DNA of 60,072 bases, filler included, from Hausera hauseri (Eukaryota): NCBI GenBank assembly GCA_046269625.1. It is 10 parts of 10 records of this genome, joined end to end, with 100 filler letters (N's around TTAATTAATTAA, not from the genome) between each part and the next. Parts side by side here need not be neighbours in the genome. Positions count along the whole stretch, not along the records: positions 1 to 8,424 come from JBJURY010647663.1; 9 more parts are not named here. One strand, 5' to 3'. Made by a program: the position numbers and the translations under genes. Below the pieces are notes generated by a model, which was given only the letters and a program-made list of their open reading frames with translations, was not told the DNA's origin and made no database searches. Below are positions 1 to 52,116 of this stretch, piece by piece. The number at the start of each line of letters is the position of its first letter. The first letter of the stretch is position 1.

Positions 1-901
1 TGTACTTTTCGATTTCTTTCTGTACTTCATGAGAATCCATACCGTTCTCTATCTGTTCCCAGGTGAGCATATGTCTGATGCTATTCAGATTATGTATATT
101 TCTGCGTGGAGCAATGATGCTCTTGAAGAGTATTTCACCTTTCTTGTCCGCTATCATTATTTCTACAGGTAAAGGGACTTGCATTCCATTGGATTTGTTA
201 CCGTAGGCAAAGGAGACGGCTAAGTATCTCGTGCTCTGAGCTTTACTGGTATACATAATGTTCGGTTCCCCTATCAGTTCCTCATCTGTTGGTTCTATTT
301 TGTACTTCAATGGGAGTAGATTCGGAAATTGTTTTTCTCGTCTAATAATTTCTATCATGCCCATATTTATCAACTCTTTGGCAATTATTCTTGTGTTCTT
401 AGAATCTATTGGGAAATTGATTTGACAAGATTCTTGTCCGTTTATGGTCTCCAAATTGTTCCTACGTCCTTTCAATCCCCTGAATACTAACATAATTTTC
501 CCAATTGCTAAATGTACGGTAATTCCGATATTGTCACCTGTCCAAACTGGAAATCTGAATGTGGTTTCGGAATTGAATATTTTGAAAGGAAGGATTGCCC
601 TGTTCCTTTGTTCGCCATATTTTAAATTATTGGGTATCTTGGTGACGTCGTTAATTCTATCCACTGGACGATCTAAATGTGCCAATATTTTATCATAGAA
701 AGAATAGCTCATGTTGTTTTCTGCTGTACTGAGTCTGAGTGTTGATCTTTTCTCATTTAATCGTTGAATTAGAATATTTCCGGGTATCTTAAATTCTTTG
801 TTTTCGTTACACTTAATTGGTTGATAGTTTGTGATTGTGCCGTGGTTTCCGAGTTCCGGCGCTTGATTAGATGAATTACCTAACAGATTTATTTTCGCCA
901 T
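1..901 (-). CDS. Open frame of at least 300 codons running off the window edge; last ~75 aa resemble the N-terminal half of a DEDDh (REX4/ISG20/DnaQ-like) exonuclease
   Basis: Manual translation from ATG at 901: MAKINLLGNSSNQAPEL...RYLAVSFAYGNKSNGMQVPLPVEIMIADKKGEILFKSIIAPRRNIHNLNSIRHMLTWEQIENGMDSHEVQKEIEKY, no stop before base 1. Absent from the ORF track because it has no stop in the window. Confidence 0.65.
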   Translation of the reverse strand, partial: MAKINLLGNSSNQAPELGNHGTITNYQPIKCNENKEFKIPGNILIQRLNEKRSTLRLSTAENNMSYSFYDKILAHLDRPVDRINDVTKIPNNLKYGEQRNRAILPFKIFNSETTFRFPVWTGDNIGITVHLAIGKIMLVFRGLKGRRNNLETINGQESCQINFPIDSKNTRIIAKELINMGMIEIIRREKQFPNLLPLKYKIEPTDEELIGEPNIMYTSKAQSTRYLAVSFAYGNKSNGMQVPLPVEIMIADKKGEILFKSIIAPRRNIHNLNSIRHMLTWEQIENGMDSHEVQKEIEKY

Positions 902-1112
902 TCTGCAATTGTACCAATGTTTTATAGTTCCCCAGGTTGGATGTGATTGGCCAATAAATGAATCTTCTTAACAAGTTAAATATCCCTTTCTGATTGGTTC
1001 TTAATTTGTAAAAAGTATAATACATCATGATTGGTCCGATAAGAGGAAGGATTGTGACTACTGAAGTTATGTCTAATTGTATTGGATGACGTAGGACCAA
1101 ATTTCTGAAGAT

Positions 1113-2936
1113 TCACAATGTTAGTATTGGCGCGAAGCAAAACACACTTTGCGTATTCTCATTTGGATCGGTTACAATGGGCTTATTGGTTGTCATATTA
1201 CTTATTTCGCTTATCTCCGTTCTATCATTTAAGGTAAAATGTGGCTCTGGTTTGATATATGTTTTATTATCTCGGATTACCGAATAATGAGATCTGTATA
1301 GCTTCCTCTTCTTACATTTGACTTTCTGTCCGAATGCGACTATTAAAATAACGATGATACCTAATGCTAACAAGATGAGAAATATCCACCAATATTGTGT
1401 AAGATACATTTCCGTAGTTATTGGCACGGATGTAGTTCTCTGCCAATTCCCATCTTCTTCATTGTAACGTATGTTTCTGTATCTATCTGCTGCAGGTAGT
1501 GTCTTTATGTCCAGAAGTTTAGAATTGTCATGAATTTTTATGTTCACTAAATAATTCGTGTCTGGGGTCAATTTTTCACAAAAATTCCGTTTGTTTGTAT
1601 TGTAATTGAAACTAATCTTCTCATGAGTACCTGTACATGTTATCAGGATACTCTGGTTATTTGGATTTTGTGCAAGTAGAATTTCAATCCGATTTACGTA
1701 TGGTGTTAACCTGACCTTTATTGGAAACTCTTTCATGAGTTTTCCATGAAACATGTGTTTGTTTATCGACTTCTGCATTACTATTTGCCCATTTCCTTGT
1801 AATTCTAATGTGAGTTTCCTTTTTGGCTTGTTTTGATTCTCTGCTCTTGATTTGCGTGGACTCCTTGTTGTTGAATTGTGTTGGCTCTCCGATTTTCCCC
1901 TATCCTTAAAAATGGAGGTCCGGGTAGGTGATGAATGTATAGCTATCCGAAGTGTAGTAAATGTGTTTGTAAGTGGAGGCGAGATCAGTCTCAATTGTGC
2001 CTGTGTGAGGGAGATAAAGATTGGTAGTTGTGATGAATGTATGCGTGTAGAAGGTTGTGTACCACGTCCAAAATACATATCGAAACGAATAATGTATCGA
2101 ATATCGGTGTGAAGAGTACAGCATACTTGCGGATGGGCTCCATTCAGATGGCATAGATGCGGTTGAGGCACAACGTGAGGGAAGGAGTCAAACCATATCT
2201 GAATTTCATATCCGAGGGGCAAAAGTTGTAAGGTTCGAAAGTTGATGCAGGAATGAGTCCGATGCACACCGATCATCACAAGATTATTCTTTAAGAATTG
2301 AGTAGTAAACCCATCGTGTAATGACGTAGGGGGGTTACCTAGAAAGTCCATGATATAATGCACTGGAACATGAATACTGAAATGAGGGTTCCATTTTGAA
2401 ATGTATTGCTCGTGACTAGACTTTTTAAGCAATATATAGTAAGAATATGACGTATCATATTCGAGTTGACTGCATGTCTGATTCTTTTTTTCAAAGATTG
2501 AACATGTGGTTGTTTCTATATCTGCTGAGGTAAAAACAATTGTAACTTCGTGTTGCAGGGGAACTGGTGAGTGTGTTTGGAGGCAAATGCTAGGTTCATC
2601 GACGTCGACGTGAGTAATGGTCGTGAGTTGAACCAAGTCGACATAGTCGTCCGAGGTTATTACCAGTTTCACAGAAAACGCTATAAGAAGTAATAAAACT
2701 ATACCAACGTATCTACCTGGAGTGAGGTGAACATGATAAGTAGCGGATTTGTGTGTATCCCGTTTTTGTTGCAGGGATAAAACAGCGACTTTGTTATCTA
2801 TAATTGTTGGAGACTCCAATTCTGTTTGTCTTATAAAGTCAGTGTATGAAGAGGGTGCTCTCATAACTCGTTGTACGGATACAGCTTCGTACTTGTCTGC
2901 ACCCTTTTGAATAAAGAGTCTGGGGACGAACATCAA
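1113..2936 (-). CDS. Integrase C-terminal tail continuing into a type I membrane protein (internal signal, Cys-containing ectodomain, FN3-like domain, TM, basic tail)
   Basis: 607-aa ORF. Hydrophobic GIVLLLLIAFSVKLVI (~2658-2708); FN3-like LTPDTNYLVNIK...IKTLP (~1495-1572); TM WWIFLILLALGIIVILIVAF (~1330-1392) followed by QKVKCKKRK. Confidence 0.7.
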   Translation of the reverse strand: MMFVPRLFIQKGADKYEAVSVQRVMRAPSSYTDFIRQTELESPTIIDNKVAVLSLQQKRDTHKSATYHVHLTPGRYVGIVLLLLIAFSVKLVITSDDYVDLVQLTTITHVDVDEPSICLQTHSPVPLQHEVTIVFTSADIETTTCSIFEKKNQTCSQLEYDTSYSYYILLKKSSHEQYISKWNPHFSIHVPVHYIMDFLGNPPTSLHDGFTTQFLKNNLVMIGVHRTHSCINFRTLQLLPLGYEIQIWFDSFPHVVPQPHLCHLNGAHPQVCCTLHTDIRYIIRFDMYFGRGTQPSTRIHSSQLPIFISLTQAQLRLISPPLTNTFTTLRIAIHSSPTRTSIFKDRGKSESQHNSTTRSPRKSRAENQNKPKRKLTLELQGNGQIVMQKSINKHMFHGKLMKEFPIKVRLTPYVNRIEILLAQNPNNQSILITCTGTHEKISFNYNTNKRNFCEKLTPDTNYLVNIKIHDNSKLLDIKTLPAADRYRNIRYNEEDGNWQRTTSVPITTEMYLTQYWWIFLILLALGIIVILIVAFGQKVKCKKRKLYRSHYSVIRDNKTYIKPEPHFTLNDRTEISEISNMTTNKPIVTDPNENTQSVFCFAPILTL

Positions 2937-5900
2937 CTACTTCATATGGTCCTTGACCAGTTCGTGTTAACTTTAGTGATTTGCTTTTCTTTGCGACTAG
3001 ATAATGAACCATTACATAATCGCCAACTTTGTAAATATGTGGGCGTGCTTTCTTGTTAAAATGTTTCTTATACCCAGCTTTGTACTTTTCTTCAAATTCT
3101 TTAGCCTCATGTTGAAAATATTCTAACCGTTTCAGTAGGTCTTGGTACTGTTCGTCCATGTGATCACTAATTTTTAAAGATGACGGTAGTAATTCGATGT
3201 CTAGTGGCAACAATGGCAAGCGCCCAAACATCAGTTCAAAGGGTGAATGGTTAGTGCTCTTCGTAGACGTAGTATTGACAGCAAAAGCAGTAGTTTTAAG
3301 GTGGAGATGCCAGTCCTTTTGATCGTGTGCAACCTTTGTTAAAAGTATGCCTTGGATTGTTCTCTTCATTCGTTCAATCATACCGTTACATTGCGGGTGG
3401 TAAGCAGCAGTAAGTAAATGTTTGCATTGAAATATTTTGGATAATTTTTCAAAAAATTCGCTAATAAAATAGGGCGCGCGATCAGTTAATAATTGTTTTG
3501 GTGTGCCTAGTACGGCTACTACCTCATAAAAATGCTTCGGCAACAGTGCTGCTAGTCATATTCTTTAATGGCACCAAGACGACATATCGCGAATAATAGT
3601 CCACAATTGACAGAATATATTTATATCCGGAATCAGACGCTTGAAAGGGACCGGATATGTCCATTGAACAAACTTCCATTGGTCTACGTGCTTCTGGTAG
3701 AGTCCCTAAGAAAGGTTTAGATCGAAATCCTCTATCTTTTCTTGTGGCACACATCTTACATAAGCGTACTCATCCTTCAATGTGTTTGTTCATCTGTGGC
3801 CAATAGTATTTCGCCGTTATTCGTTTTAATGTCTTATTCAGAGAAGGGTGGCCAGCTAAGTGAGAATCATGTTCTTGTAGCATGACAGCTTTGATTGCTA
3901 CTGACGGTACTATTACTAGTTTCCGCTCGCCAACTTTTAGTTGTAGAATTCCATTTTCTATTTTTAACTGTTCTTTGTGTTTATCATAGAATTTCTTAAT
4001 ATGACTTGATACTTGATCGGCCGACTGTTCATTGATCAGTTGTTTAATCTGTGCAATAAGTGTATCCTGTTTTTGTAGTGTTTCGATATTTCGAACCTGA
4101 ATCAATCGTTGCTCCTGCAACATCTCATTGATAACTGTCTCTTAGTTGTTTATCTTTTTCATTATCAGGTTTGTGAGTTGCTGCGATTATTCTTTCGTAG
4201 GGTAAACGGGAAATTGCATATGCGTCTATATTTTCCTTTCCTGGACGATATCGATATTCAATGTCATAATTCAAAAGCTCTAACTTCCATCTTTGGAGTC
4301 GGCTTGATACATGTCGATTATCAGATCGAAATGATAGTAAGGCCTTATGATCAGTGAATATGATGATTTTGTGTCCATAAATGTAATATTCGTAGTGTCG
4401 CAGTCCGTCTTTGATAGCTAACAACTCCAGTTCTGTTGTAGAGTATTTTCTTTCAGCACTATTTAAACTACGTCCGCCATATGCTATGACGTGTTCCGTC
4501 TTTTCTTCTGGACTTTGTTGGGTTAATATATAACTAATGGCATTAATACTGGCATCTGTTTTAAGAATGAAAGGTAAGTTAAAATCTGGGTATCTCAATA
4601 TCGGTGCTGATACTAATCTTTTCTTAATTTCGTCAAAAGCATTCTGATTTTCTTCACTCCATTCCCATTTTTGGTCCTTCTTTAACAATTTGTATTGTGG
4701 TTGATTGATTTCTGCAAAATTTTCGATGAAAGTGGAGTAAAATCCTCCTAAACCTAACCAAACTTTCATTTCATGTACATTGGTTGGTAAGGGATATTCT
4801 AATATTTTAGATATCAAGTCTCGACTAGTGGATATTCCTTTGTTTGAAACTATGAATCCAAGATATCGGACTTCGGTTTTACACCATTCACATTTCTTTG
4901 GATTCAGCTTTAATTTTGCAAGTCTGATTCGATCAAATACTTCTCTTAACTCTACTAGATGTGCTGACCATGTTGTTGAAGCGATTAAAATGTCATCAAT
5001 ATACGATAGGCCCCAAACTCCTTTAAGTACTAAGCGAATAAATTCTTGAAAGAATGCCGGCGCAGTCTTTAATCCGAATGGCATGCGGGTAAATTGATAC
5101 ACTCCGGTATGTGTCTTGAATGCGGTTTTCCATCGGTCCTCTTCTGCTACTGGAATTTGCCAGAATCCACTTTGCAAATCGAGAGTTGTAAAATAATTAC
5201 AATCTTTCAATTCATCTATGATATCGCGTATTCTAGGTATCGGGTAAGCATGATTCGCTAAATGCTTGTTTAACGTAACACAATTTACACATAACCGACG
5301 TTTCGTGGTATTAGCTTTCTTTGCCATAACTATAGGGGATGGCCAAGGTGACTGACTAGATTCAATGATGCCTTTGTCCAACATGGTTTGGATTTGTTCC
5401 TCAACTTCCTTTTGGAGTGCCTTTGGAGGCGGATACCATTTGGGTACTGGTTGTCGTAAAAGATCTGTTTCTTTCCCTGTCAGAGGATCAATCATAAATG
5501 ACAGCTTAAACTCAACCAAATCAGTCCGTCCAATATCTGTTTCATCTTTAGCAAATATATCAATATATTCAAAGATGAGGTCCGAGAGATTTTTTGGTAT
5601 TCATCTGATAAATTTTTCTTCGCTTTTGCGAGAATAAGATCAAGCATATCTTCAACAATTTCATTTGTAGACAGAGCTGCAAGTTTACCGTCATATTCTT
5701 TATGTAGAATAGTTTCGAGAGCATGTCCAAGCTTCGTTTTAGTAAATATCGTGACATATCTCGGAGTTGGATTCAATATTTCAATAGGGATTGTTCCGCC
5801 GATTACATTTACACAATAATGCGGTAGTATAAGTCTGTTCAGGAACGTTCTTGGTATAAATTCAATGACACTGTTGTCGGGAAACATTGTTCTGGCGTGT

Positions 5901-6976
5901 ACTACCATTCTAGAATATGGTGGTATCTTCTCGACATGTCCTATCCAAATGTCTTTATTTTCATAACTTGGCGGAAAATCCTCGTTATTAGGGCAAATTG
6001 ATCCTGATTGTAAATTTATGTGAACTCCTTCCAATCTTCTCAATACGTTCATGCCTATAATGCATCTGGGATCTAAATTTGTCATGACCTCGAAAATTAC
6101 TTTAACCTTTTGTCCGCAGATGATTGGTTCACTTTTCCAATGTCCGTATGGTTTGCTGCATTGCTGGAAAGCTGAGATTGTACCTAGAGTGTCTTTTGCT
6201 GCTAATTTTATCTGTGACTGAAGTTCGTCCGGGATTGCGTGTTTTGCTATCAGTGATATATTGGCGCCTGTATCTACCATGGCGTTTAGATCAAAGGTGC
6301 CAAAGTGAACGGTTGTATGTGGTCGATTATCTCTAATTAACTCTAAAAATGTCAATACATCATTATGATCGTCGATATGAGGTTCCATCAAGGTGTAGCT
6401 GGATGCACAATAATGTCTTGTTCCGTTAGGTAATATGACTGTTAAGCTTTCCAAAGATAGTGTATCCTTTTCTATTTCCTTTGTCTTTGATTTAAGTTCA
6501 GCCAAATCTGGATAGCAACTTAGGTGTCTAACGGTCTGTTGAGTACTATCTGATTCTGTTGTTGCCATTATTCGGTTAGACTGACTTTCTACAGATTTAT
6601 TTGTTCGGTGATAAGTCACTGGCGGCATCATATCAAGCTTAGGAGATAGTGGCAAGTTTATTCGGTTTCGTTCTATGTTTTGTGTAACAATAGACTGAAG
6701 TATTTCGTCTTGAGAAATTTTTGGTAGGTTACGCAATTTTATATATTCTTCTCTTTTTGTATATTGGTCTTCCAACTTCGGTAGATTGAAATTTGACATT
6801 TCATAAGGTGCACCTGGTACTTGGTGTTTATTCTTTGGTTTTTGTTTAATCTTTTCCTTTGATTTCATTAGTTTAAATAATTTCTTTTTCTTTTCTTGTA
6901 TATTGGATGTATTAGTTCTGTACCATGGTTTCCTAAATATGTTTTTGGTTTGCGATTCACTTACATATGAGCCCAT
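2839..6976 (-). pseudogene. pol: Gypsy pol (linker-PR-RT-RNaseH-IN) split by a few frameshifts and a stop
   Basis: VDTGANIS; LDLQSGFWQIPV, MPFGLKTAPAFFQ, YIDDILI; TDAS, YSTTELELLA, TDHKAL; integrase HHCC (HDSHLAGH...CKMC), MDISGP, TDRAPYF, YHPQCNGMIER, GPY. Confidence 0.95.
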
Positions 6977-7607
6977 ATTGGTGCTGTTTATATAGTTTTT
7001 TGAAAATGTTCAAATCTGGACATCAATAATTAAGACCTGCAGTGGGAAATTTGTATTGAATGAGATTCTGCATAACAGAATTTACAAGGTTTGACCAGAG
7101 TGAGTGCGAATGAATCCATCCTTCTCATCTTAAGATTATTTTTGTTTAAATGTCTGCCATAAAAGGTGGTGGGTGATTACTTCAAGGAATTATAGGTTTT
7201 CATCTGTAGTATGTTTCAATCCCTTTTACATACAGCACTTTTATATACAGCACTTTTATGTTCTAACTAGTGACCTCATTTTTAACACTAGACCTTTGTC
7301 TCTAGCTCTTAAAGGGAACTGAAACCAGTTTACAGGAGCTGCCCTGTTACGCTTTTGGAACCAAAAACTCAAAACTGGTAATGTGAGCAGATAAGTCCCA
7401 CCTACTTTTCGGCATGCAACCCAAACAGGAAATAACTAATTATTGTTGAACATGTTTAAAAAAAACATCTGAACATACAGCAGCAATTAGAGGAAACTCT
7501 GGTTCATTTTCCGAACTTAATAATCTCAATATTGCCCATAAAAAATGCCCTCATTAACAATGATGATTTCAAGACGGCAGTTTTTATACATGAGAAAATT
7601 GAAACTA

Positions 7608-8424
7608 CACTGTTAAAAATTCCCGTAAAATTATGGTCACTGACCATATAATTTGACGGGAAACGACCTCCATAGCAAAAAATGGTCTACGACCGTAAAA
7701 ACCCTTAGATCCCTATGAGCTTGAATGTATACTTCGCTGCCAGCTTTGAATTACGGTCGCTGGTACTAAAATAGCCACATTCGCTTAAGTCACGTGGTGT
7801 CATCTGTGAGCGAGGATCCGAGATCAGTCGCCTCGCCGCCATTAAAACAGCATTGTTGGACGTTTTTTGAGGTAAGTTTCTTTATTTATTATTCGTTAGT
7901 AAGTTTTGTTATTAGTATACTTTGAGTATAGAATTGAGGATGTTATTTCTCAGTCTGTACTGAAATATACGTCATAGAATATATATACGGTTTATATATA
8001 TTTATTTTTTTCTCTTTAGAAAAAAAAGTGTTTACACCACCTAAAAGTTAAGCATGAGCATGAGAGTGTTTGCAGGTGTGTGATGCACATCGGGGTTCTT
8101 TCATGTAGTAAATACACTGGTATTAAGTGAATCAGATTTAAACACAATGTGTGTCCAGGTGATGAGCGATTCAGGCTTACGGTTCTTCCCGGGTGCAGTT
8201 CACAAAGTGCCATCGGGATCACACAGAAGAGAGTTTTGTCTCCACTTTGACTCTAATACATTGTAATTTGATATTTTGGCACAATAACCTGCATTCTTTT
8301 TTCAGATGTCTTTTGAGAACTAACTGGGCCTTTGTAACTGTGTACACATGGATGCAGCCAGATACACACACATGCTCATGAATCACACAGCTTGATTGTA
8401 TATTGGATGAGGACGGCTTTCATT
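7608..8424 (+). mobile_element. Possible CACTA/CMC-like DNA transposon end followed by spliced exon fragments
   Basis: TA|CACTGTTAAAAA start, internal palindrome TTCCCGTAAAATTATGGTCA-C-TGACCATATAATTTGACGGGAA (~7620-7662), splice-like GAG|GTAAGT (~7872) and polypyrimidine-AG (~8019, ~8305). Only one end seen. Confidence 0.3.
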
Positions 8425-8524
8425 NNNNNNNNNNNNNNNNNNNNNNNNNNNNNNNNNNNNNNNNNNNNTTAATTAATTAANNNNNNNNNNNNNNNNNNNN
8501 NNNNNNNNNNNNNNNNNNNNNNNN
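8425..8524. other. Artificial scaffold linker
   Basis: N44-TTAATTAATTAA-N44 (stops in all six frames). Confidence 0.98.
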
Positions 8525-9210: not shown

Positions 9211-9432
9211 TTATATTTGTTTATACACTGTTATTCCTTTCTGATTAAATATATCTGTTTTAACCCGTTCATCATCTGGACATTGTTGTGTGAAGTCGAT
9301 AAAAATATACCCATGTGCATTTTTCGTTTAATCATGAAATGCATCAAGAAAATATTTCTATCATGTGGATAAGCTTGTCGAGCAACAAAATCAATTACAG
9401 TTTGATCACGAGGATTTTTAAATAAAAGTCCT
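9211..9432 (-). pseudogene. Maverick/Polinton packaging ATPase, C-terminal fragment
   Basis: LFKNPRDQTVIDFVARQAYPHD/KYFLDAFHD*TKNAHGYIFIDFTQQCPDDERVKTDIF follows the FKNPRD..ARQ.YP..GYL.ID..RTNIF pattern; one frameshift and one stop. Confidence 0.8.
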
Positions 9433-10094
9433 GAATGAACTGTACAAGTTAACACAATTACTCGTAAAAATGGCGGAGATTAGCAATGAGAAGGTGAGAC
9501 AATTGATGCCTCAAATACGACAGGCTGAAGAAACGTGCATTAGAAATAAACAAAGAGCAGTAAAGTTAGACGAACTAATAAATGAGCTCGAAATTTATAG
9601 GAACAAGTATGCTTTTACTGAGTCAGAAATTAACAGGAAGATAGTTTATACAAAGATGGCAAAGGAATGTAATTATCGAGGTAACCGACTATCATCAAAA
9701 GGAACTCATTCCTGCTAACGAAGTAGGCAAACTATTAAAACTGATCCAGTACGCTTCTGGAAACGGAATAGATTTCCGGACCACACAGATGAAAGAAATA
9801 CAACCGAGATTAAAGGACATTCGAGAGAATGTGCAAAGAATGAATACAGCACTAGCAGACAATGGACTTCCAGAAGTTGGAATGGGATGCTTACTTAGAT
9901 GTCATGTCGAAAATCCGATGACTCCAGTACGGTTAAATGAAACAGAAATGTATCCGCCGAACAGAAAATTATACGTGGAGACGCTCCTGAATTCGACTCT
10001 AAATTATCTTGTGAGAACGCAGTTTACAGCGCGGTGCCGAAACTTTTGATAAGGAAACATGCTAAAATCTTAAGGGCTAAAACCTGAGGTAACG

Positions 10095-10305
10095 ATGAAA
10101 ATAAAGATATCATCTGAGTGGATGGATGAAAGACAATGTGAGTTAACCACATTCCTGTGTGAGGGATGTAAGAGAATGGTTGATAAATAATGGTAGAATA
10201 AATGAACTATAGACTCTACTTTAGAGGTAGAATATTAGACGACTTAGAACCGTTAATAGACGTTGGAATTATACTTGATGAAACAAACCGAATAGTAGTA
10301 ACAGT
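10095..10305 (+). pseudogene. Ubiquitin-like domain within the retroelement coding region
   Basis: MKIKISSEW...YRLYFRGRILDDLEPLIDVGI...IVVTV aligns with ubiquitin [20 protein letters not shown]; no C-terminal GG. Confidence 0.6.
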
Positions 10306-10965
10306 AGCTAATGAGCAGACTAAAGAAGCCACACGTAAGACTAAGACAGCACAATGCGTAGGACAAATTATGGGAGTCCGAGACGCCGCCATGTATTTTG
10401 AGTATCTGCAAACGGATGAAGACAGGGAACAGTATGACAAGAATTTAGTACCAATAAGTGAAATGACAACGACGGTTTCAAAACAGAAATGCCCTGTAGG
10501 TAGGCTCAGGAAAATATGAGATGTTTACTATAACGGAGAATTGATTAAAGAATTGAGACAGATGTCAATTTCTATCTTCAGCGCAGACAACGAAGAATTA
10601 AGCGAGTTAATGAAAAATCTAATACGCATCGTAAATTATTCAAGCCTCCATGGTGACGTATTAGACGAAAAAGAAAAAGCGATATTTAACGCAGCAAAAA
10701 CGATGAAGATCATGGTGAAGAATGCAATAGAAGAGCTAAGGAAAGTATTAGTGTACTTAGCTATTAAGAGAAATCCCAGTAAAGAGAATGAATTTAATAG
10801 AGCTACAAGCTTGATAAGAAAAACAGCTAGAAAACTGCCTCGAGAAATAAACTGGCTACGACTATTCGATAAAAAAGAAGATAAACGATCCAGCAATAGT
10901 AACCGACTCGAAGACGTGTTACAAAATCTCACAACAACGGAAAATAACAACCATAGAAAGGAGTC

Positions 10966-12625
10966 CAATTGGCTAATCAACTTACTCACCTTGATGATAT
11001 TGGTAAAACAGATAGGTGCCCTTACCATCTATGACTGCAATAAATTTAAACTTGGACAGAAATACTGCTTAATGGATTTAGAGGCGTGCGAAGATGCCAG
11101 ATCGCATAAACTAGAGAAAGGAGAAAAGTTATTTTCTATACCAACAACAAGAATTGATATCATTGGATGGAATGAAATGTATGTTACGGCGATCATGTAG
11201 CATTTTCCACTCTGGGTTAATACACGGACATTCGCCGATAATTAAACCGACGACTCACCTAATTCCAATGAACTTAGAACGACAACATTGTAAAGAGGCA
11301 AGGGAAACAGGAAGATTAAAGTGGGATGGTATGGAACTGGAAATTCAACCTGGAAAGATAATTAGAGCATATAAAGTAGTGGCTGGGAGGCTAGATATGT
11401 ATAACGGACAGTGTAATGAAAATCAAAAATGCCATTTACAAGACGGAACATGTGCTTTTAGAAGTTCTGTTATAATAAGGGAACCCCCTTCAGGAAGAAA
11501 TTGTAATTTTATCAAAATCAAGGAATTAAAATTTAATGAAACTACCGGAAACTGATATGTGGATAAATCTGATAGCAACTCAAGAACAGGCGAGGACGTG
11601 GCAGAACATCCTACACTTACTATTTTGACCGCCGATCCGCATGGACTAAAATTTTTTAAAAGGGAGATGATCCCACTTTGCGAAATTGTGATGTTCGCCA
11701 TTAATTATGAAGCAGAAACGGAAATAAGTGCAAATACTTACAACCTTGAGACGCAAGGTATTCGTATTGAAGATTACCTAAAAAATCAAGACGATTTTTA
11801 CTACAGAGTGCAAATCGGAATTACCGAATTAAATCACAAAATGATAAAGAATAATTGTAAATTGGATATGGAAATCATGAGGACAAAATTAGCTCTTATC
11901 TACGCTAACCATGATTTAGCATCGCCAATAATTCTGATGAGAGAAGGAATTTTCGGTCGAGTTACCGGTGAAGTCTTATTGACTTATGAATGTGAGAAAC
12001 GAGACGTACCAATCAATGTCGAAGAAAAACGGTGCGTACAAGAACTCCCCCTTATTTATCAGAACACTCAATGCTTAGCCATGCCGCTTACTAGAGTATT
12101 ATTAGATAATGCTACCGAACCAACGATCCTTAAGGAATGTAAGGCAAGTTTAGTAGAACTCATGTAGCGAAACGGATTGGGTAAGCTTGCCAAATGAAGG
12201 TATTAATGTCGCTCGAAATTCAGTTAACAGGAACTAACCTAGTAAAAGGGATAACGGACGACAAATTCCAAGCACCTCATCAAAAGGTATTATAGACCAA
12301 AGGAAATTGATGCGTTCAGACAATTTCGTGCCTTTCCGCGACAACGAACGCATACATTAAACCGAGCCATAGCCTAAGTAGTACATGATACTCGATATCA
12401 AGCTAAATTACCATTACCAACGACTAACCACGGAAATACTCTATAAAATATTAGGAAGATTTGTAATTTTTGGACAAGCTGCATCTGGATTTTTAACCAT
12501 TTACTTTTTAGTCCAATTAATTAAAGCGGTAATCCAAGCTATTATAAACTGATATGAAATATTCACATTGACAGGATTCTCCTGCAAAATTTTTACCGCA
12601 ATCATCACACCCTTCGGAAAGATGC
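10966..12625 (+). pseudogene. env: Chuvirus-like envelope glycoprotein (presumed class III fusogen), frameshifted
   Basis: Signal NWLINLLTLMILVKQIGA then LTIYDC...LMDLEAC (11021); VAGRLDMYNGQC; GEVLLTYEC..CVQELPL..PLTRVL; Y.PKEIDAFRQFRAFP..TLN; C-terminal FGQAASGFLTIYFLVQLIKAVIQAIIN*YEIFTLTGFS. All match, in order, the chuviral G motifs as I recall them. Confidence 0.85.
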
Positions 12626-13289
12626 TTAAGGCATACGAAGAAAATCGATGGATAAATGTTGTAGAACGCCATGTCGGATATTATAATCGTAAACGACGAG
12701 GCAGACCCTCGATTCTCAATAAACGCAAAAATAAAAAGTCAATAATGCGGAAAGACGAATCAGATGATGACGAGCCTAAGGGAGGAGAAGTGAATTCCAG
12801 AATGAAGACGCACAAGATGTACTCAGTGATTAACTCACCGTTACCTATCATGCCGCCAGCAGCACCAATATATGAGGAGTGCAACCACGAATAGATCGTA
12901 TCATGTGGGTCCGAAATTTATCAAAGTCCCATAAACTATGAAGACCGTTACGAAAAGACAAAACAATATGTAGTACTACGGAAAATGAATGTTATCAACC
13001 AAGGGCAAACCTAAAACAACCACGAAATATTGTACTCAAAAAGAATACAGCGTAACATAGAATCGAAATAAACGATCTGGGAAAACCCAAAATTGTGTTT
13101 ACGAACTCACGAAACGCATATCGACAGTCGCGCCAATGAGATGGTGAATAATAATTTATACCCCAGTGGAGAATTAAGCCAATTGAGGCAAGATACTATT
13201 TCATCTCCAGAGATAACAATAAATGGACACAGAGTCTCTACTATAAAACGGTCAAAGGCAGTGTCAAATTGTTTTGGAACAGTAGTAGA

Positions 13290-13505
13290 AAAGAGGCCCT
13301 TCGCTAAAATACACATCGAAGATTAGGAAATGTATGCACTAATCGACACAAGATCAGAAAAATCATTCGTAAAATATGAATCCATACCAACCACTTTACG
13401 AGACCAACTATGTCCACCGCATCATCAGACCCAGGTAGCGTAGGAGCATTTGGGCAAGTATCGAAGCCGACATTTAACTGGACTGCTACCGTCCATATGA
13501 TGGGC
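13290..13505 (+). pseudogene. Retropepsin (aspartic protease) fragment
   Basis: KRPFAKIHIED*EMYALIDTRSEKSFV (DTR at 13345-13353, one base from DTG) ...GSVGAFGQVSKPTFNW. Confidence 0.85.
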
Positions 13506-26958: not shown

Positions 26959-28743
26959 AAATCATTCATTAAGGAGAATTATAAAGTTAGGGATTATTTC
27001 CATTTCACGTGCACATATCGAGGTGCAGCATACAACATGTATAAAATATTTACATATGTGCCTATAGTGTTCCATAATCTCAGTGGTTATGATTCCCATT
27101 TCATTGTTTGAAACTGAGCAGCATTGAATGAAACACTGATATGATCCGTAATAGTGAGGAAAAATACATCACATTTACCAAGCATGTTGGAAAAATCAGG
27201 CTTTGTTTCATAGACAGTTTCCGTTTTATGTCGTCTTCACTTGAAAGTTTAGTGAAGAACCTCCCAGCAAAAGAACTCAAGGAGACTAAGCGGTTCTTTC
27301 TCATTGCATTTGATCTATTCAAAAGGAAAGGCGTGTTTCCTTATGACTATATAACATCATGGGAAACACTGGATGAGGCCTCATTGCCGGCCAAGAAGGA
27401 TTTTTACAACATCCTCTCTGATTGCAATATCAGTGATATGGATGACCAGCATGCTCAAAATGTCTGGCATGCATTTCAATGACGAATATTAGCAGAATAC
27501 AGCGACATATACCTAAAGACGGACTTGCTGCTTCTGACGGATGTCTTTAAGAGTTTCAAGGATGCTACGATAAAGAGCCATGCATTGGATCCGGCTCATT
27601 TCTTTACGGCTTCATAGATGAGTTTGGCAGCTGTGCTGAGATATACAGGTGTCAGGCTACAGATCATAAAGGATTACTACATGATCCTCATAATTGAGAG
27701 AGGCATTATAGGCGGAATATGCCAGGCCATCCACCGGTATAGTGAGGCAAACAACAAGGAATCCTCATATTTATCATACCTGGATGCCAACAACTTGTAT
27801 GGATAAGAAATGAGCGCCCCATTGCATATGATAACTTCAAGTTGGTTGAGCATCCCGAAGGCATCCTTATACTGGACCTGGATTCCAATGGAGATACAAG
27901 CTATATACTGGAAGTAGATATGGAATATCCGGCTTCTATTTACAAAAGGAATGAGCATCTGCCTTTCCTTCCTGAGAACAAAAGACCTCCGAATGGGGGA
28001 TTAGAAAAGTTACTGTGCCATCTTCGAAATCGGGAAAGACATGTAGTCCACTACATAAATCTCCAGCAAGCGGTCAGAAATGGACTCCGTGTTATTAAGA
28101 TCCATTGGACCCTGCAGTTCAGCCAGTTCATGTGGCTGCAGCCATACATAGATCTCAATACCAAGCTACGGACCAATGCCAAGAACGACTTTGCGAAGGA
28201 TCAGTTCAAGCTATACATCAACAGCGTTTTTGGCAAGACCATAGAAAATATCCGCAACAGGGTTAACATCGAACTGGTCTCTGAGTGGAAGCGGGCATAG
28301 AAGCTCATTGCCAAACCAAATTTCCACAGTAGCATCATATGTGCGGAGAACTTGGTCAGCATCCATATGCTGAAAACATCCTTGCAATTCAACAAGCCCA
28401 TATATGTGGGTATAGCAAAAATGGACCTGTCAAAGACCCTGATGTACAAATTCCACTATGACATCATGGTCCCTAAGTTTGAGTCCATGCAGCTGATGGA
28501 TATGGATACTGATAGTTTCATCTATCAGATCTATACAGATGATATTTTAAGGACTTTGTCCAATTGGCACATCACATGAATATCTCGGATTATCCGAAGG
28601 AACATTCCAACTATTCAATAGCCAACAAAAAGGTCCTTGGGAAATTCAAAGACGAGGTGAATGGAGCAATCATCTCGAGATTTGCAGCTCTTAGGTCCAA
28701 AATGTATGCCATTGATATATTTGGCCAAGTAACGAAGAGGGCT
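26959..28743 (+). pseudogene. polB: Maverick/Polinton protein-primed DNA polymerase B (exonuclease and polymerase domains), disrupted and 3'-truncated
   Basis: VRDYFHFTCTYRGAA, FHNLSGYDSHF, FIDSFRFMSSSL, KGVFPYDY, YLDANNLYG, KLYINSVFGKT, MDTDSFIY, LGKFKDE, LRSKMYA. Confidence 0.95.
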
Positions 28744-28744
28744 G

Positions 28745-29460
28745 TGTCACCGCGTCGGATTTATAGTTGTACCCGATCCCCCGCCGCGAAAATGTCACAA
28801 GATGACCTTCTCACACATGAACGGAAGAAAGTTTTGTTATTCCCAAATCTGTATCAATCGATTTAGTCAGCTCATCCCTGCAAAATTCTCAACCTTTTGT
28901 TATCCGTTATCAGAAACCTGATTCATTCATCAGGCCTACCGATGAAAATTTTATTTTGAAAAACATCGGCGAATTTCAAGACAACGAAAGATTTGTTTGT
29001 ATCATTTGAAAATTGGAAATCAGGTACTACATACAGCTTCACGGTTTTTGCTCCAAACATTCTTGGAAATTCATCTAAACCAAAGGAGTCATATGAATCA
29101 ACATTGCGACCAGATTTTAAAGATTTCAAATTAAATTCCATCGAAAATGGATTCAATCACAAAGTTAATGTTTCATGGACTTTCGAGGTTCGCCGGAACT
29201 GTTCGCATTACTTCACCGTAAGTTACAAAATCTCTGGTAAAAACTCTCGTACAAATACAACAAACAATACAAATTTGTTATTAAATGAATTGAACACGAA
29301 CGAGGTTTACAACGTCACAGTCAGACCAGAATTAAGAATAAAAACAGAGAACAATGAAAAGTTTGGTCGACCACAATTTCAAATATTTTATACAGGAAAG
29401 CAACTCATTAGAATCACAAATGTCAGATTAAATAATTCTCTCAGTAATCAAATAGAGACA
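28745..29460 (+). pseudogene. Fibronectin type III repeats (host surface-protein fragment)
   Basis: VPDPP.., NWKSGTTYSFTVFAPNILGNS, VNVSW...FTVSYK...LNELNTNEVYNVTVRP. Confidence 0.7.
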
Positions 29461-29779
29461 ATTTCATGGATTTCCTTGAAGAAGATATTTTGGCAATTTT
29501 CAATTATTTGGAAGTTTGTTTCGTCAAAAGCAAAACTTATAAATTCAATTTTTATATCATCATTAAATTAATTCTGTTTTATACAATTTTTTATTTAATT
29601 TTATACTCAAAAGATCGTCATGAAGTACGAAAACGAAAGACGCTTGGAAAATGATAATTATTATTCTGATGACGAAAGAGGCGGATACGGAAATATGTCG
29701 TCAGAACAAAAAGAAGCAGGATTGCATCTTATTCGTGCGGTACGCTATTGAAATTGAATATTATAAAAGCAGCCCATTT

Positions 29780-30120
29780 ATACCCGACGAAATGGGAATG
29801 ACTACATTGCATCATGCTGCAGAAAATGGAAATTTTCTTGTCGTACAACATTTACTGCATTCATTTTCTGACATTGACGTTGATCACCAATCAGCCGCCG
29901 GTCGCACAGCACTACCAATTGCCTGCTGTAACGGATATCTTGATTTGGATTCGTTGGGTTATCATTCTTTGTTGTGGGCCATCGAGAAACGTCATTTGTC
30001 AGTCGCTCTATTTCATCAATGAGACTGATGTTGATGTAACAATGAAAAATAATTTTGAGGAAGATGCCTGCTAACTTGCTCTAGAATTGGATGATCCCCA
30101 GTTGTTTGATATTTTAAACG
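29780..30120 (+). pseudogene. Ankyrin-repeat fragment, frameshifted
   Basis: DEMGMTTLHHAAENGNFLVVQHLL..DVDHQSAAGRTALPIACCNGYLD..GYHSLLWAIEKRHLSVALF. Confidence 0.85.
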
Positions 30121-46900: not shown

Positions 46901-49900
46901 CATTCGTTCTTTCGTTCTTTCGTTCGTTCTTTCAATCCTTCCTTCCTTCTTTCATTCGTTCGTTCTTTCATTCGTTCATTAGTTCCTTTGCTCGTTCGTT
47001 CGTTCTTTCTTTCGATCGCTCGATGGATCGTTCTTTTATTCGTTCCTTCGTCCGTTCATTCTTTCTTCCTTTCGCTCGATCGATTGTTCTTTCTTTCGTT
47101 CCTTCGTTCCTTCTTTCTTTCCTCCCTTCGTGAGTTCGTTCTTTCTTCCGTTCGTTCATTCGTGACTTCGTTTCTTCGTTCTTTCGTTCGTTCTTTTGTT
47201 CGTTTTTTTGTTCGTTCTTTCGTTTCTTCGTGAGTTCGTTCCTTCGTGAGTTCGTTCATTCGTGAGTTCCTCTTTCTTTCATTCTTTCCTTCTTTCCTTC
47301 TTTCGTTCGTTCATTTGTTCATTCTTTCGTTCTTTCCTTCGTTCTTTCGTTCTTTCGTTTCTTCGTTCCTTCGTTCCTTCCTTCGTTCTTTCATTCCTTC
47401 ATTAGTTCGTTTGTTCTTTCGTTCCTTCCTTCGTTCTTTTGTTCATTCGTTCGTTCGTTCATTCGATCGTTCCTTCGTTCGTTCCTTTGTTTGTTCCTGC
47501 ATTCGTTCGTTCGTTCTCTCATTCGTTCGTTCGTTCGATCTCTTATTCATTCGTTTGTTTGTTCGTTCGTTCGTTCTCTCGTTCGTTCCTTCGTTCTTTC
47601 TTTCGTTCGCTCGATCGATTGTTTTTTCTTTCGTTCCCTTGTTCTTTCTTTCTTTCGTTCGTTCATAGTTTCATTCGTTCTTTCGTTCCTTCGTTCGTTG
47701 GTTCATCCGTTCGTTTGTTCGTTCTTTCGTTCGTTCGTTTCTTCGTTCGTGCGTTCGTTCGTTCGTTCGTTCTTCCGTTCGTTCTCTCGATCGTTCGTTC
47801 TTTCGTTTTTTTGTTCGTTGGTTCATCCGTTCGTTCGTTCGTTCTTTCGTTCGTTCGTTTCTTCGTTCGTTCGTTCGTTCTTTCTTTCGTTCTTTCGTTC
47901 TATCATACGTTCGTTCGTTCGTCCGTTTTTTCATTCTTTCCTTCGTTATTTCTTTCTTTCCTTCGATCGTTCGTTCTTTCCCTCGTTCCCTCGTTCGTTC
48001 CTTCGCTCGTTCGTTCGTTGTGTCATTCGCTTTTTCGTTCTTTCGTTCGTTCCTTCGTTCGTCCGTTCGTTCTTTCGTTCGTTCCTTCATTCCTTTGTTC
48101 GTTTGTGAGTTCGTACTTTCTTTTATTCCTTCCTTCTTTCATTCCTTCGTACGTTCTTTCTTTCGTTCATTCGTTCCTTCTTTCGTTCTTTCGTTCTTTC
48201 ATTCGTTCGCTCGTTCGATCATTCGTTCACTCGTTCTTTCGTTCATTCGTGAGTTCCTTCTTTCGTTCATTCGTTCCTTCTTTCGTTCTTTCGTTCTTTC
48301 ATTCGTTCGCTCGTTCGATCATTCGTTCATTCGTTCGTTCGTTCGTTCATTCTTTCGATCGTTCCTTCGTTATTTGGTTCTTTCTTTCTTTCCTTCCTTC
48401 GGTCTTTCTTTCGTTCTTTCATTCCTTCATTCGTTCGTTTGTTCGCTCGTTCCTTCCTCCGTTCTTTTGTTCATTCGTTCGTTCGTCCTTTCGAACGTTC
48501 CTTCGTTCGTTCCTTTGATCCTTCCTTCATTCGTTCGTTCGTTCGTTCTTTCCTTCGTTCGTTTGTTCGTCCGTTTGTTCTTTCTTTCGTACGTTCGTGC
48601 GCTACTTCCTTCCTTCGTTCGTTCGTTCGTCTATTTTTCCTTCTTTCCTTTGTTCATTCGTTCTTTCGTTCGTTCGTTCGTTTGTTCGTTCGTTCGTTCG
48701 TTCGTTCCTTCTTTCGTTGGTTCATCCGTTCGTTCGTTCGTTCTTTCGTTCGTTCGTTTCTTCGTTCGTTCGTTCGTTCGTTCGTTCGTTCCTTCTTTCG
48801 TTGGTTCATCCGTTCGTTCGTTCCTTCTTTCGTTTGTTCGTTCGGTCGTTCGTTCCTTCGTTCGTTCGTTCGTTCGTACGTTCCTTCGTTCCTTCGCTCA
48901 TTCTTTCGATCGTTCGTTTGCTCCTTCCTTCCTTCGTTCTTTCGATCGTCCTTTATTTCGTTCTTTCTTTTGTTCATTCGTTCTTTCATTCGTTCGGTCT
49001 GTCGTTCGTGAGTTCGTTTCTTCGTTCGTTCGTGCGTTCTTTCGTTCATTCGTGACTTCGTTCCTTCCTTCATTCTTTCTTTAGATTACTCGTTCTTTCG
49101 TTCCTTCGTCCATTCGTTCGTTCGTTCGTTCGTTCGTTCCTTCTTTCATTCCTTCATTCGTTCATTTGTTCGTTCGTTCGTTCGTTCGTTCTTTTGTTCG
49201 TTCGTTCGTCCGTTCTTTCGTTCTTTCCTTTGTTCATTCGTTCTTTCGTTCATTCTTGAGTTCGTTCTTTCGTTAATTTGTTCCTTCTTTCCTTCTTTCG
49301 TTCGTTCCTTCGATCGTTCGTTCGTTCCTTCAATCGTTCCTTCGTTCGTTTGTTCGTTCGTTCCTTTTTTCCTTCGTACTTTCGTGCGCTCCTTCCTTCC
49401 TTCGTTCGTTCGTTCGTCCTTTATTTCGTTCTTTCCTTTGTTCATTCCTTCTTTCGTTCATTCGGTCGTTCGTTCGTGAGTTCGTGAGTTCGTGTGTTCG
49501 ATCCTACGTTTGTTCCTTCGTTCATTCTTTTGTTCGTTCTTTTCTTTGTTCTTTATTTCGTTCGTTCAATCGTTCGTTCTTTCGTTCCTTCGTTCCTTTC
49601 TTCATGAGTTCGTTCGCTCGTCCTTCATTCGTTCGATCTTTCGTTCCTTCGTTCCTTCGTTCGGTCGTCCGTTCTTTCGTTCTTTCCTTTGTTCATTTGT
49701 TCTTTCGTTCCTTCGTTTGTTCCTTCGTTCCTTCCATCGTCTGTTCGTTCCTTCAATCGTTCTTTCGTTTTTTCGTTCGTTCGTTCTTTCCTTCGTTCCC
49801 TCGTTCGTTCCTTCGCTCGTTCGTTCGTTGTGTCATTCGCTTTTTCGTTCTTTCGTTCGTTCTTTCCCTCGTTCCCTCGTTCGTTCCTTCGTTCGTCCGT

Positions 49901-50192
49901 TCGTTCTTTCGTTCGTTTTTTCGTTCCTTCCTTCCTTCGTTCTTTCGCTGTTTCGTTCGTTCTTTCGTTTGTTCGTTCTTTCATTCTTTCGTTCGTTCCT
50001 TTATTCCTTCGTTCGTTTGTGAGTTCGTACTTTCTTTCATTCGTTCCTTCTTTCATTCCTTCGTTCTTTCATTCGTTTGCTCGTTCGATTATTCGTTCAC
50101 TCGTTCTTTCGTTCCTTCGTGAGTTCCTTCTTTCGTTCATTCGTTCCTTCTTTCGTTCTTTCGTTCTTTCATTCGTTCGCTCGTTCGATCAT
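43963..50192. repeat. Degenerate tetranucleotide tract: (CGTC)n then (TTCG/TTCT/TTCC)n, with an internal N gap at 44222-44409
   Basis: Directly visible; strongly pyrimidine-rich on the plus strand. Confidence 0.98.
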
Positions 50193-50960: not shown

Positions 50961-51097
50961 TGGTGCCCACGTTCATCCAATGGGCGATTTGATAAAAAAC
51001 TATTTTGTTTGAATATTTAAATAAAAAATAAACTTTTGTGTTTGCCGTACGAAACTATTGTTTTATAATTGCATGATTTTTAATCAACTATTTCCAA

Positions 51098-52115
51098 ATG
51101 TCTACAGGTTTGATTTCAATATTTGAAACAGATCTAAACGAGATTATTTTGGAATATTTTGAATATTGTGGGTACAGCAGTGCACTTCAAAATTTCATCA
51201 AAGAACTGGAAGACAAAGGCAAACCGACACCGAAGGAGTCGTCCGATAAGAAATTTAATTCGGTATCACGTGATGTCACTGGCAGAATTTTAAATGCATT
51301 TCATCGCGGAAACAAATTGGAATTTTTCAAATTATGGAATTCTCATTTACCAGAGACATTGCATCAGGATGATCCCGTCTGTCAGAAATTAGAAGTCTAT
51401 TGCCCAATCTATTTTGCAATTTTTTCGATTGTACATAATTTTGATAATGAAGGCGAATTGTTGTCAATGCAAGGATTCCGCGAATTTCTGGAAACTAGAG
51501 GTGCAAAATTAAGCAAAAGTACAGAATTCGTACGATTTTATGCGTTACCCTATGTGCCGAATCCTCGAGAACATCCGTCGTTTTGTGAATTATTTCAAAA
51601 CAGATGGATTTCCGGTTTAGGAATGCGAGTAAAACGATTTTTCAAATTAGCTCTATCAAATAACAGGGAACCAAAACTTATAAAATTATATCAGAAAAGT
51701 GGTTCAGACAACGATGAAATCAGTTTAAAACAGTTAGATTAAAATGGTTGACTCCGAAAGACTGACCACTAGTTACATGAAACGACTGAATCAAGTTCAA
51801 ATCGACTAACATAACTTAATAGGCATTAGTGCTGAGCTTGTTGATTTATTAGAAAAAAGTCTTCAGGGTATTCCGGTCAGTCCTAGTCATTTGCAACATG
51901 TCTGTCAAAAATTATTGGTTTCACAACAGCATCGACTTAAAACGAATGGAATTCCGGTAAATATAAGTTACGATTTATCGAGACCAGGAACAACGTCCAT
52001 GATGCTTCGACAATCCATTCAAGTGAATAACCTTCCTATGGCTAATGGACGAGAATCTACTGATATGAGTAATAAAGCGTTTAAGCCACTAAACTTTACG
52101 AAAGTGAAACATAAG
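51098..52115 (+). pseudogene. ARMC9: ARMC9 (LisH-domain ciliary protein) intronless pseudogene, N-terminal ~340 codons
   Basis: LisH LNEIILEYFEYCGYSSALQNF; QKLEVY..IYFAI; FLETRGAKLSKSTEFVRFYALPYVPNPREHPSF; D*HNLIGISAELVDLLE; RPGTTSMMLRQS, all collinear with ARMC9. Frameshift near 51740 and TAA near 51807. Confidence 0.88.
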
Positions 52116-52116
52116 T

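Follow-up and report, generated by a model that had tools for sequence, protein, structure and literature searches.

The 60,072-nucleotide stretch of DNA from Hausera hauseri analysed here (GCA_046269625.1; the window) carries, behind the integrase of a Ty3/Gypsy retroelement, an open reading frame (ORF) of 607 amino acids (aa; 1113-2936, minus strand), whose product is predicted to be a type I, single-pass membrane protein with three cysteine repeats of about 80 aa. Our preferred reading, to which we give a probability of about 55%, is that this is a cargo gene directly behind the integrase, likely translated as the tail of Pol, with three likely fibronectin type III (FN3)-like repeats and a probable non-fusogenic role in attachment at the surface.

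The window consists of animal contigs strung together by an artificial linker that recurs unchanged at nine places (N44-TTAATTAATTAA-N44, from 8425-8524 up to 55710). Contig 1 (1-8424) holds the 607-aa ORF on the minus strand, and the linker at 8425-8524 parts its element from contig 2 (8525-13505), which bears a chuvirus-like glycoprotein (G) on the opposite strand. Any claim of gene neighbourhood across one of the nine linkers is an artefact, and a general caution applies: adjoining genes in the window sit on unrelated contigs.

Architecture, sibling copies and integrase junction of the 607-aa ORF

An open frame of this length would arise by chance, at the local composition, with a probability of about 2e-19; the ORF is real and stands at the position and on the strand where a first-pass annotation of this DNA had placed it. 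Behind the integrase end, an internal signal-like hydrophobic segment (residues 76-95, 2652-2711, minus strand as for all features of contig 1; hydropathy 2.5) lies about 81 codons after the GPY motif. It is followed by an ectodomain whose roughly 420 aa include 9 Cys and 3 NxS/T sites, by a transmembrane (TM) helix and then basic residues (residues 515-536, 1329-1394; hydropathy 3.3), and by a cytoplasmic tail of 71 aa with one YxxPhi motif (1116-1328) that is poorly conserved among copies. The signal-like segment and the TM helix are the only two hydrophobic segments of the ORF. Within the ectodomain lie repeat D1, a predicted Cys beta-sandwich (2367-2630), repeat D2, for which modelling gave a beta-sandwich of seven strands (2052-2294), a linker rich in Ser/Thr/Pro and Lys/Arg (1713-2051) with a basic stretch at residues 358-375, and repeat D3 with an LxPxTxY motif (1485-1712). 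The linker varies among copies and is where sibling indels cluster. Signal-like segment, ectodomain with Cys and NxS/T sites, basic stretch, TM helix and basic tail had all been described at first pass and were recovered here. Neither a canonical furin site (R-x-K/R-R) nor a hydrophobic fusion peptide was found in the 607-aa ORF. Past its stop the frame is open for 78 more codons (878-1112, minus strand), with another hydrophobic stretch.

Upstream of the ORF, Pfam matches on the minus strand follow the order protease (PR), reverse transcriptase (RT), RNase H and integrase (IN), which is the order of a Ty3/Gypsy Pol. The aspartic protease (6026-6331; RVP, E 8e-8) precedes RT and RNase H (4128-5600; RVT_1, E 5e-31; RT_RNaseH, E 3e-31) and an integrase in pieces with H2C2 zinc domain, core and GPY (2842-4141; Integrase_H2C2, E 2e-12; rve weak; tblastn of P0060, a Gypsy Pol), which is interrupted by one stop and by frame shifts and ends in a GPY/F module (GPY at 2952-2944). 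Pol of this copy is broken at about five places, and the copy itself is dead. No Gag match and no repeats (long terminal repeats, LTRs) were found on contig 1, where the copy is cut near 7025 and at the contig start.

Five public sequencing runs from five organisms contain part of the stretch, X1 being perhaps that of the source; no RNA run was among those listed, which says nothing on expression. Sibling copies were seen as contigs from four of the runs (X1, X2, X4 and X5), whose depth is not to be equated with copy number. On contig 1 lie 3937 X1 contigs with a summed depth of 223-8464 over 1-7025 and of 2-22 beyond; the depth drops from 491 to 5 across 7025, where the family sequence ends (5' truncation). 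Over 900-3100 we found 368 X1 contigs, 247 of them less than 90% alike, and X1, X2, X4 and X5 cover 30, 28, 16 and 15, respectively, of the 30 bins, with low sibling cover at 1122-1269 in the tail region. Inside the ORF, the 8 sibling indels that were listed either compensate one another locally or add up to a multiple of three. Of 403 differences 40 were listed, and 22 of these fall inside the ORF; 12 of the 22 are silent (0.286 expected; p 0.01), which points, in a crude test on a selected sample, to selection on the protein. Judged from these contigs, a multi-copy Ty3/Gypsy family carries the 607-aa ORF as cargo and keeps its frame in divergent siblings. Because sibling contigs cover the ORF and keep its frame, it is not a host gene lying alongside the element and is not absent from sibling copies, two possibilities that the first-pass annotation had named as fatal to its view. 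A host gene adjoining this one copy, or passively captured by it, would match the type I FN3-like architecture typical of animal host genes. The ORF, however, is intronless and flanked by two element ORFs, hundreds of divergent sibling contigs cover it at family-level depth, and no host homologue was found among 1.84 billion protein representatives apart from a single relative, P0001, so that this origin is extremely improbable.

The integrase and the 607-aa ORF are separated by a frame break (2905-2925). As had been proposed, GPY lies in the integrase frame and EAVSVQRVMRA, the integrase-like motif following it, in the frame of the 607-aa ORF. A single frameshift near 2920 had also been proposed; siblings place the break at about 2912 and so support one at this spot, and it is not the only one, given the breaks along Pol. 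The evidence at the junction consists of three short contigs in two runs, none of them an intact copy: one contig of X1 (depth 66.6 of 248.6) and two of X2 (15 of 17.5) have an indel near 2912, the ninth of those listed, relative to the contig-1 copy and do not share its break. X2 contig pieces bridge the junction, and X4 and X5 are without cover there. Because of this indel in siblings, the frameshift looks, from the contigs compared, private to the contig-1 copy, i.e., decay, and Pol likely continues in frame into the 607-aa protein as its C-terminal part. A programmed frameshift was rejected, since siblings differ at the junction.

Such a layout has a precedent. Tails of more than 150 aa occur in 18 of the 106 Pol relatives that have an integrase match, and one of these 18, P0060, follows the same logic, with integrase, signal-like segment, Cys ectodomain and TM helix in one frame. 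That the gene is instead a separately expressed accessory ORF (ORF3 type) overlapping the integrase end, its frame change being programmed or ancestral, would agree with P0001, which begins with its own Met and signal, and with Gypsy ORF3s, which are typically separate spliced units (PMC5408684, in the sections available). Yet the integrase's own last motif is in the downstream frame, siblings have an indel at the junction, and neither a Met within 50 residues before the signal-like segment nor an acceptor-like site (by a crude pattern) was found; we consider this reading highly improbable.

Relatives and fold of the ectodomain

P0001 is the one distant full-length relative among the 1.84 billion protein representatives. 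It is 27% identical and colinear with the 607-aa ORF, and the signal, the three repeats, the Cys pairs, the TM helix and the basic tail are all kept, the internal signal-like segment having its counterpart in the N-terminal one of P0001; the two D3 repeats align with a z of 11.8. The linker of P0001 is shorter, non-basic and Thr/Ser-rich. A conserved furin site in the basic stretch was considered and rejected, as P0001 lacks this stretch.

Further homologues of the 607-aa protein were found neither among 6084 candidates of near length nor among 3219 longer ones, and nothing was recovered from viral contigs searched with RT and with the A1 alignment or from a metagenome scan with P0001. An integrase scan yielded 22 distant loci (27-40%), none of which matches the ectodomain profiles (best E 0.56), and none of 120 long Pol matches has an ectodomain match. 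The two members at 27% identity, together with the many sibling copies, define a new protein family under selection in a retroelement.

The Pfam scan gave nothing under E 0.015 for the ORF or under E 0.059 for P0001, while the same scan found PF24664 on contig 2, and Protein Data Bank (PDB) sequence searches returned chance matches only. The protein thus belongs, as far as sequence comparison reaches, to no known env class (F-type, gB/chuvirus-type or class II), in agreement with the first-pass view of it.

LxPxTxY is the tyrosine-corner motif of FN3 domains. It is present in D3 of both the 607-aa ORF (as LTPDTNY) and P0001, and a degenerate LxxxxxY is found in D1 and D2. Using AlphaFold2, we obtained for D2 a beta-sandwich of seven strands (predicted local distance difference test, pLDDT, 74; predicted template modelling score, pTM, 0.66), whereas a single-sequence model of the whole protein reached a pLDDT of 36, which makes a fold search on it meaningless. 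In the fold search with D2, 11 of the 50 rows listed are FN3-type, judged by their titles, and no match is significant; a search of BFVD gave no match under E 0.001. Atlas leads for the 607-aa protein are FN3 and cytokine receptors at 0.85-0.89. The Pfam fn3 profile matched neither the whole ORF, nor the three repeats taken singly, nor P0001, and the repeats show no similarity to the host FN3 gene in the window (z at most 1.9; hhalign probability 0.2%). An FN3 identity is compatible with these data and unproven, and D1-D3 are likely FN3-like. The FN3-like domain of the first-pass annotation is thus retained for its motif and for an FN3-compatible sandwich, and corrected from one repeat to three.

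FN3-type cytokine receptors and adhesion proteins are type I proteins with tandem seven-stranded sandwiches and Cys pairs. The 607-aa protein resembles them in its type I topology, its predicted Cys-paired sandwich repeats and the LxPxTxY motif in D3, and differs from them in lacking a Pfam fn3 match, a significant fold match and sequence likeness to the host FN3 segments of the window.

From what was observed directly (the position, the repeats, the presence and frame conservation in siblings, and the sibling junction indel), we infer the following mechanism. Translation of Pol would run past the integrase into the internal hydrophobic segment, which would direct the nascent chain to the endoplasmic reticulum (ER); signal peptidase would release the N-terminus of the ectodomain into the ER lumen, and the C-terminal helix would anchor the protein in the membrane. 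The disulfide-bonded repeats, on their Ser/Thr-rich stalk, could then reach the surface of the cell or particle, where the ectodomain may attach to a molecule on the surface of adjacent cells and in this way promote the passage of the element from cell to cell.

As the main functional alternative, the element would encode a receptor mimic or decoy whose target, at the cell surface, is the signalling or immunity of the host and which plays no part in particles. The leads from Atlas and Foldseek include cytokine receptors (IL-11R, gp130, IL-13R; IL-2R gamma, IL-17RA), and planarian Burro elements are reported to carry host-regulatory domains (PMC6431247, in the part available). All cytokine-receptor matches nevertheless fall below significance, the repeats show no likeness to the host FN3 gene of the window (z at most 1.9, as above), and the tail is short and poorly conserved, which leaves a decoy improbable next to the attachment protein proposed here.

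The chuvirus-like glycoprotein and a possible two-part entry machine

The broken chuvirus-like (gB-type) glycoprotein G lies on contig 2 (10958-12600, plus strand; Pfam PF24664, E 1e-13) and matches P0102, a protein with Gag-G-PR-RT-IN in one frame. A weak ubiquitin-like segment (about 10202-10270, E 0.09) precedes it and a protease motif follows at 13336. Read from the sequence, the layout of contig 2 is gag-env-pol and Burro-like, which is no more than a hint of a flatworm-type genome. As a whole, 9422-13505 (plus strand) appears as a decayed Burro-like fragment with pieces of an ORF of unknown kind, a helical segment, G pieces, a spacer and the protease motif.

The first-pass annotation had paired the 607-aa protein with this G as partners on a two-glycoprotein retroelement. 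That pairing rested on adjacency across an artificial linker and is not supported: G belongs to a different element, because it has its own protease, because blastn and tblastx of contig 1 against contig 2 gave no match at E 1e-3 and because no G remnant was found on contig 1. Likewise, G and the 607-aa ORF do not lie on one continuous element, and a linkage of contigs 1 and 2 was rejected, in view of the linker at 8425-8524, the opposite strands and the protease of G at 13336.

A separate question is whether intact members of the contig-1 family carry a G of their own. The copy is cut 245 aa before the protease Asp, and the segment of about 225 aa that precedes the protease (6332-7009, minus strand) has a basic cluster, no CCHC knuckle and no recognisable Gag; in 14 of 17 relatives that have a knuckle, it lies within 104 aa. 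This stretch aligns colinearly with the spacer between G tail and protease on contig 2, with a score of 66 without the protease, which was reached in 9 of 5000 shuffles (three frames tried) and exceeds all 29 control spacers (best 61). With tblastn at relaxed settings, the spacer gave an E of 0.02 alone and of 4e-6 together with the protease, and the distance from basic cluster to catalytic Asp is 207 aa on contig 1 vs 220 aa on contig 2. In sequence, contig 1 and contig 2 are thus weakly alike in this spacer. An upstream G in intact family members is possible because the copy is truncated before the protease and the spacers are weakly similar, although we hold the odds to be somewhat against it. 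If intact members do carry a G, the 607-aa protein would be a specific candidate for the attachment partner that is still missing.

The strongest form of this proposal, which is compatible with our preferred reading and claims more, is that intact members are gag-G-pol elements with a gB-type fusogen before the protease and the 607-aa protein as its receptor-binding partner, all in one polyprotein. The truncation of the knuckle-free stretch, the colinear spacer and its spacing speak for it; so do the sister grouping of P0102 and P0060 (100/99 support) and the gag-env-pol elements already known (PMC13524379, PMC6431247, both in part). Against this stand the lack of a G remnant on contig 1, the position of the G of the window on another contig, next to a protease 22% identical over the aligned stretch, and the lack of a blastn or tblastx match between the contigs. 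The RT of the contig-1 element, moreover, falls outside P0060 and P0102 in free trees, in which the element stays unplaced, and an approximately unbiased (AU) test neither shows nor rejects the grouping (p 0.36). A common spacer does not amount to a common G, and no sequence with both proteins was found among the 120 long Pol matches. On balance we consider gag-G-pol members of this kind unlikely. The P0102/P0060 clade appears a good place to seek elements with two membrane proteins.

How gB-carrying errantiviruses enter cells is described as unknown, and herpes simplex virus (HSV) needs gD, gH and gL besides gB (PMC13524379, in the part available). An animal Gypsy lineage with a two-part entry machine in one polyprotein, in which a class III fusogen of gB type before the protease would be joined by a captured, FN3-like protein for receptor binding behind the integrase, is doubtful and rather unlikely; if true, it would be a retroelement counterpart of herpesvirus gB plus gD and would explain how gB-carrying errantiviruses choose and enter their target cells.

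Comparison with known elements and other contents of the window

Gypsy elements are already known to carry an env of F type or gB type as well as various additional ORFs. Behind pol, the bdelloid elements Juno and Vesta have further genes, among them DEDD exonucleases and TM proteins whose origin is unknown, and they resemble the contig-1 element in these further genes and in the GPY/F end of the integrase (PMC5408684, as far as available). Their ORF3s, in contrast, stand as separate units, which measure 210-230 aa in the TM types or else encode a paramyxovirus-like F, whereas the contig-1 gene appears fused to the integrase; an FN3-like repeat protein is not described in the available sections of that paper. 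In the literature covered, excluding Repbase and subscription journals, we found no FN3-like single-pass membrane protein described behind a Gypsy integrase.

A gag-env-pol layout is known from planarian Burro/GYPSM1 (PMC6431247, in part), and GAG-ENV-POL errantiviruses with an HSV/gB-type env from nematodes, bryozoans and flatworms (PMC13524379, in part). Contig 2 resembles these elements in its weak ubiquitin-like segment, G and protease, and the contig-1 element may be of the same structural type. The main text of PMC13524379 and the available part of PMC6431247 mention no second membrane protein behind the integrase; the contig-1 element, unlike these elements, has no G on its contig, where the copy is truncated.

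P0060 shares with the contig-1 element an integrase, internal signal-like segment, Cys ectodomain, TM helix and tail in one polyprotein. It differs in its short, unrelated ectodomain (no A1 profile match), and its RT is 41% identical and not grouped with that of contig 1. In BEL/Pao elements such as Atlas virus, env is in the same ORF as pol, and the membrane glycoprotein is, as proposed here, the C-terminal part of a polyprotein; these elements differ in that they encode a recognised viral fusogen and are members of a different LTR superfamily.

A further element ORF runs off contig 1 (2-967, minus strand), with family cover in all four runs and no match in Pfam or PDB searches. Its C-terminal part is DEDD/RNase T exonuclease-like as a lead only (Atlas RNase_T cluster 0.83, 14% of members), and its last ~100 aa have a DEDD/RNase T exonuclease look by eye. 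The segment between protease and RT (5600-6010, minus strand) is beta-rich, without a Pfam dUTPase match; Burro has a dUTPase-like domain there.

Elsewhere in the window, host-like FN3 and ankyrin segments (28960-30022, plus strand) are unrelated in sequence to the repeats of the element. The host gene ARMC9 (51077-52403, plus strand; Pfam CTLH_Armc9, E 5e-41) has long open frames and is perhaps intron-poor or a retrocopy. A piece of a Polinton-type DNA polymerase B lies at 27746-28300, and other contigs hold more Gypsy and mariner fragments. Two long arrays were also detected, one of 8 kb in which a unit of about 68 bases is repeated in tandem (34424-42813) and a 6-kb array of 4-base units (44440-50190).
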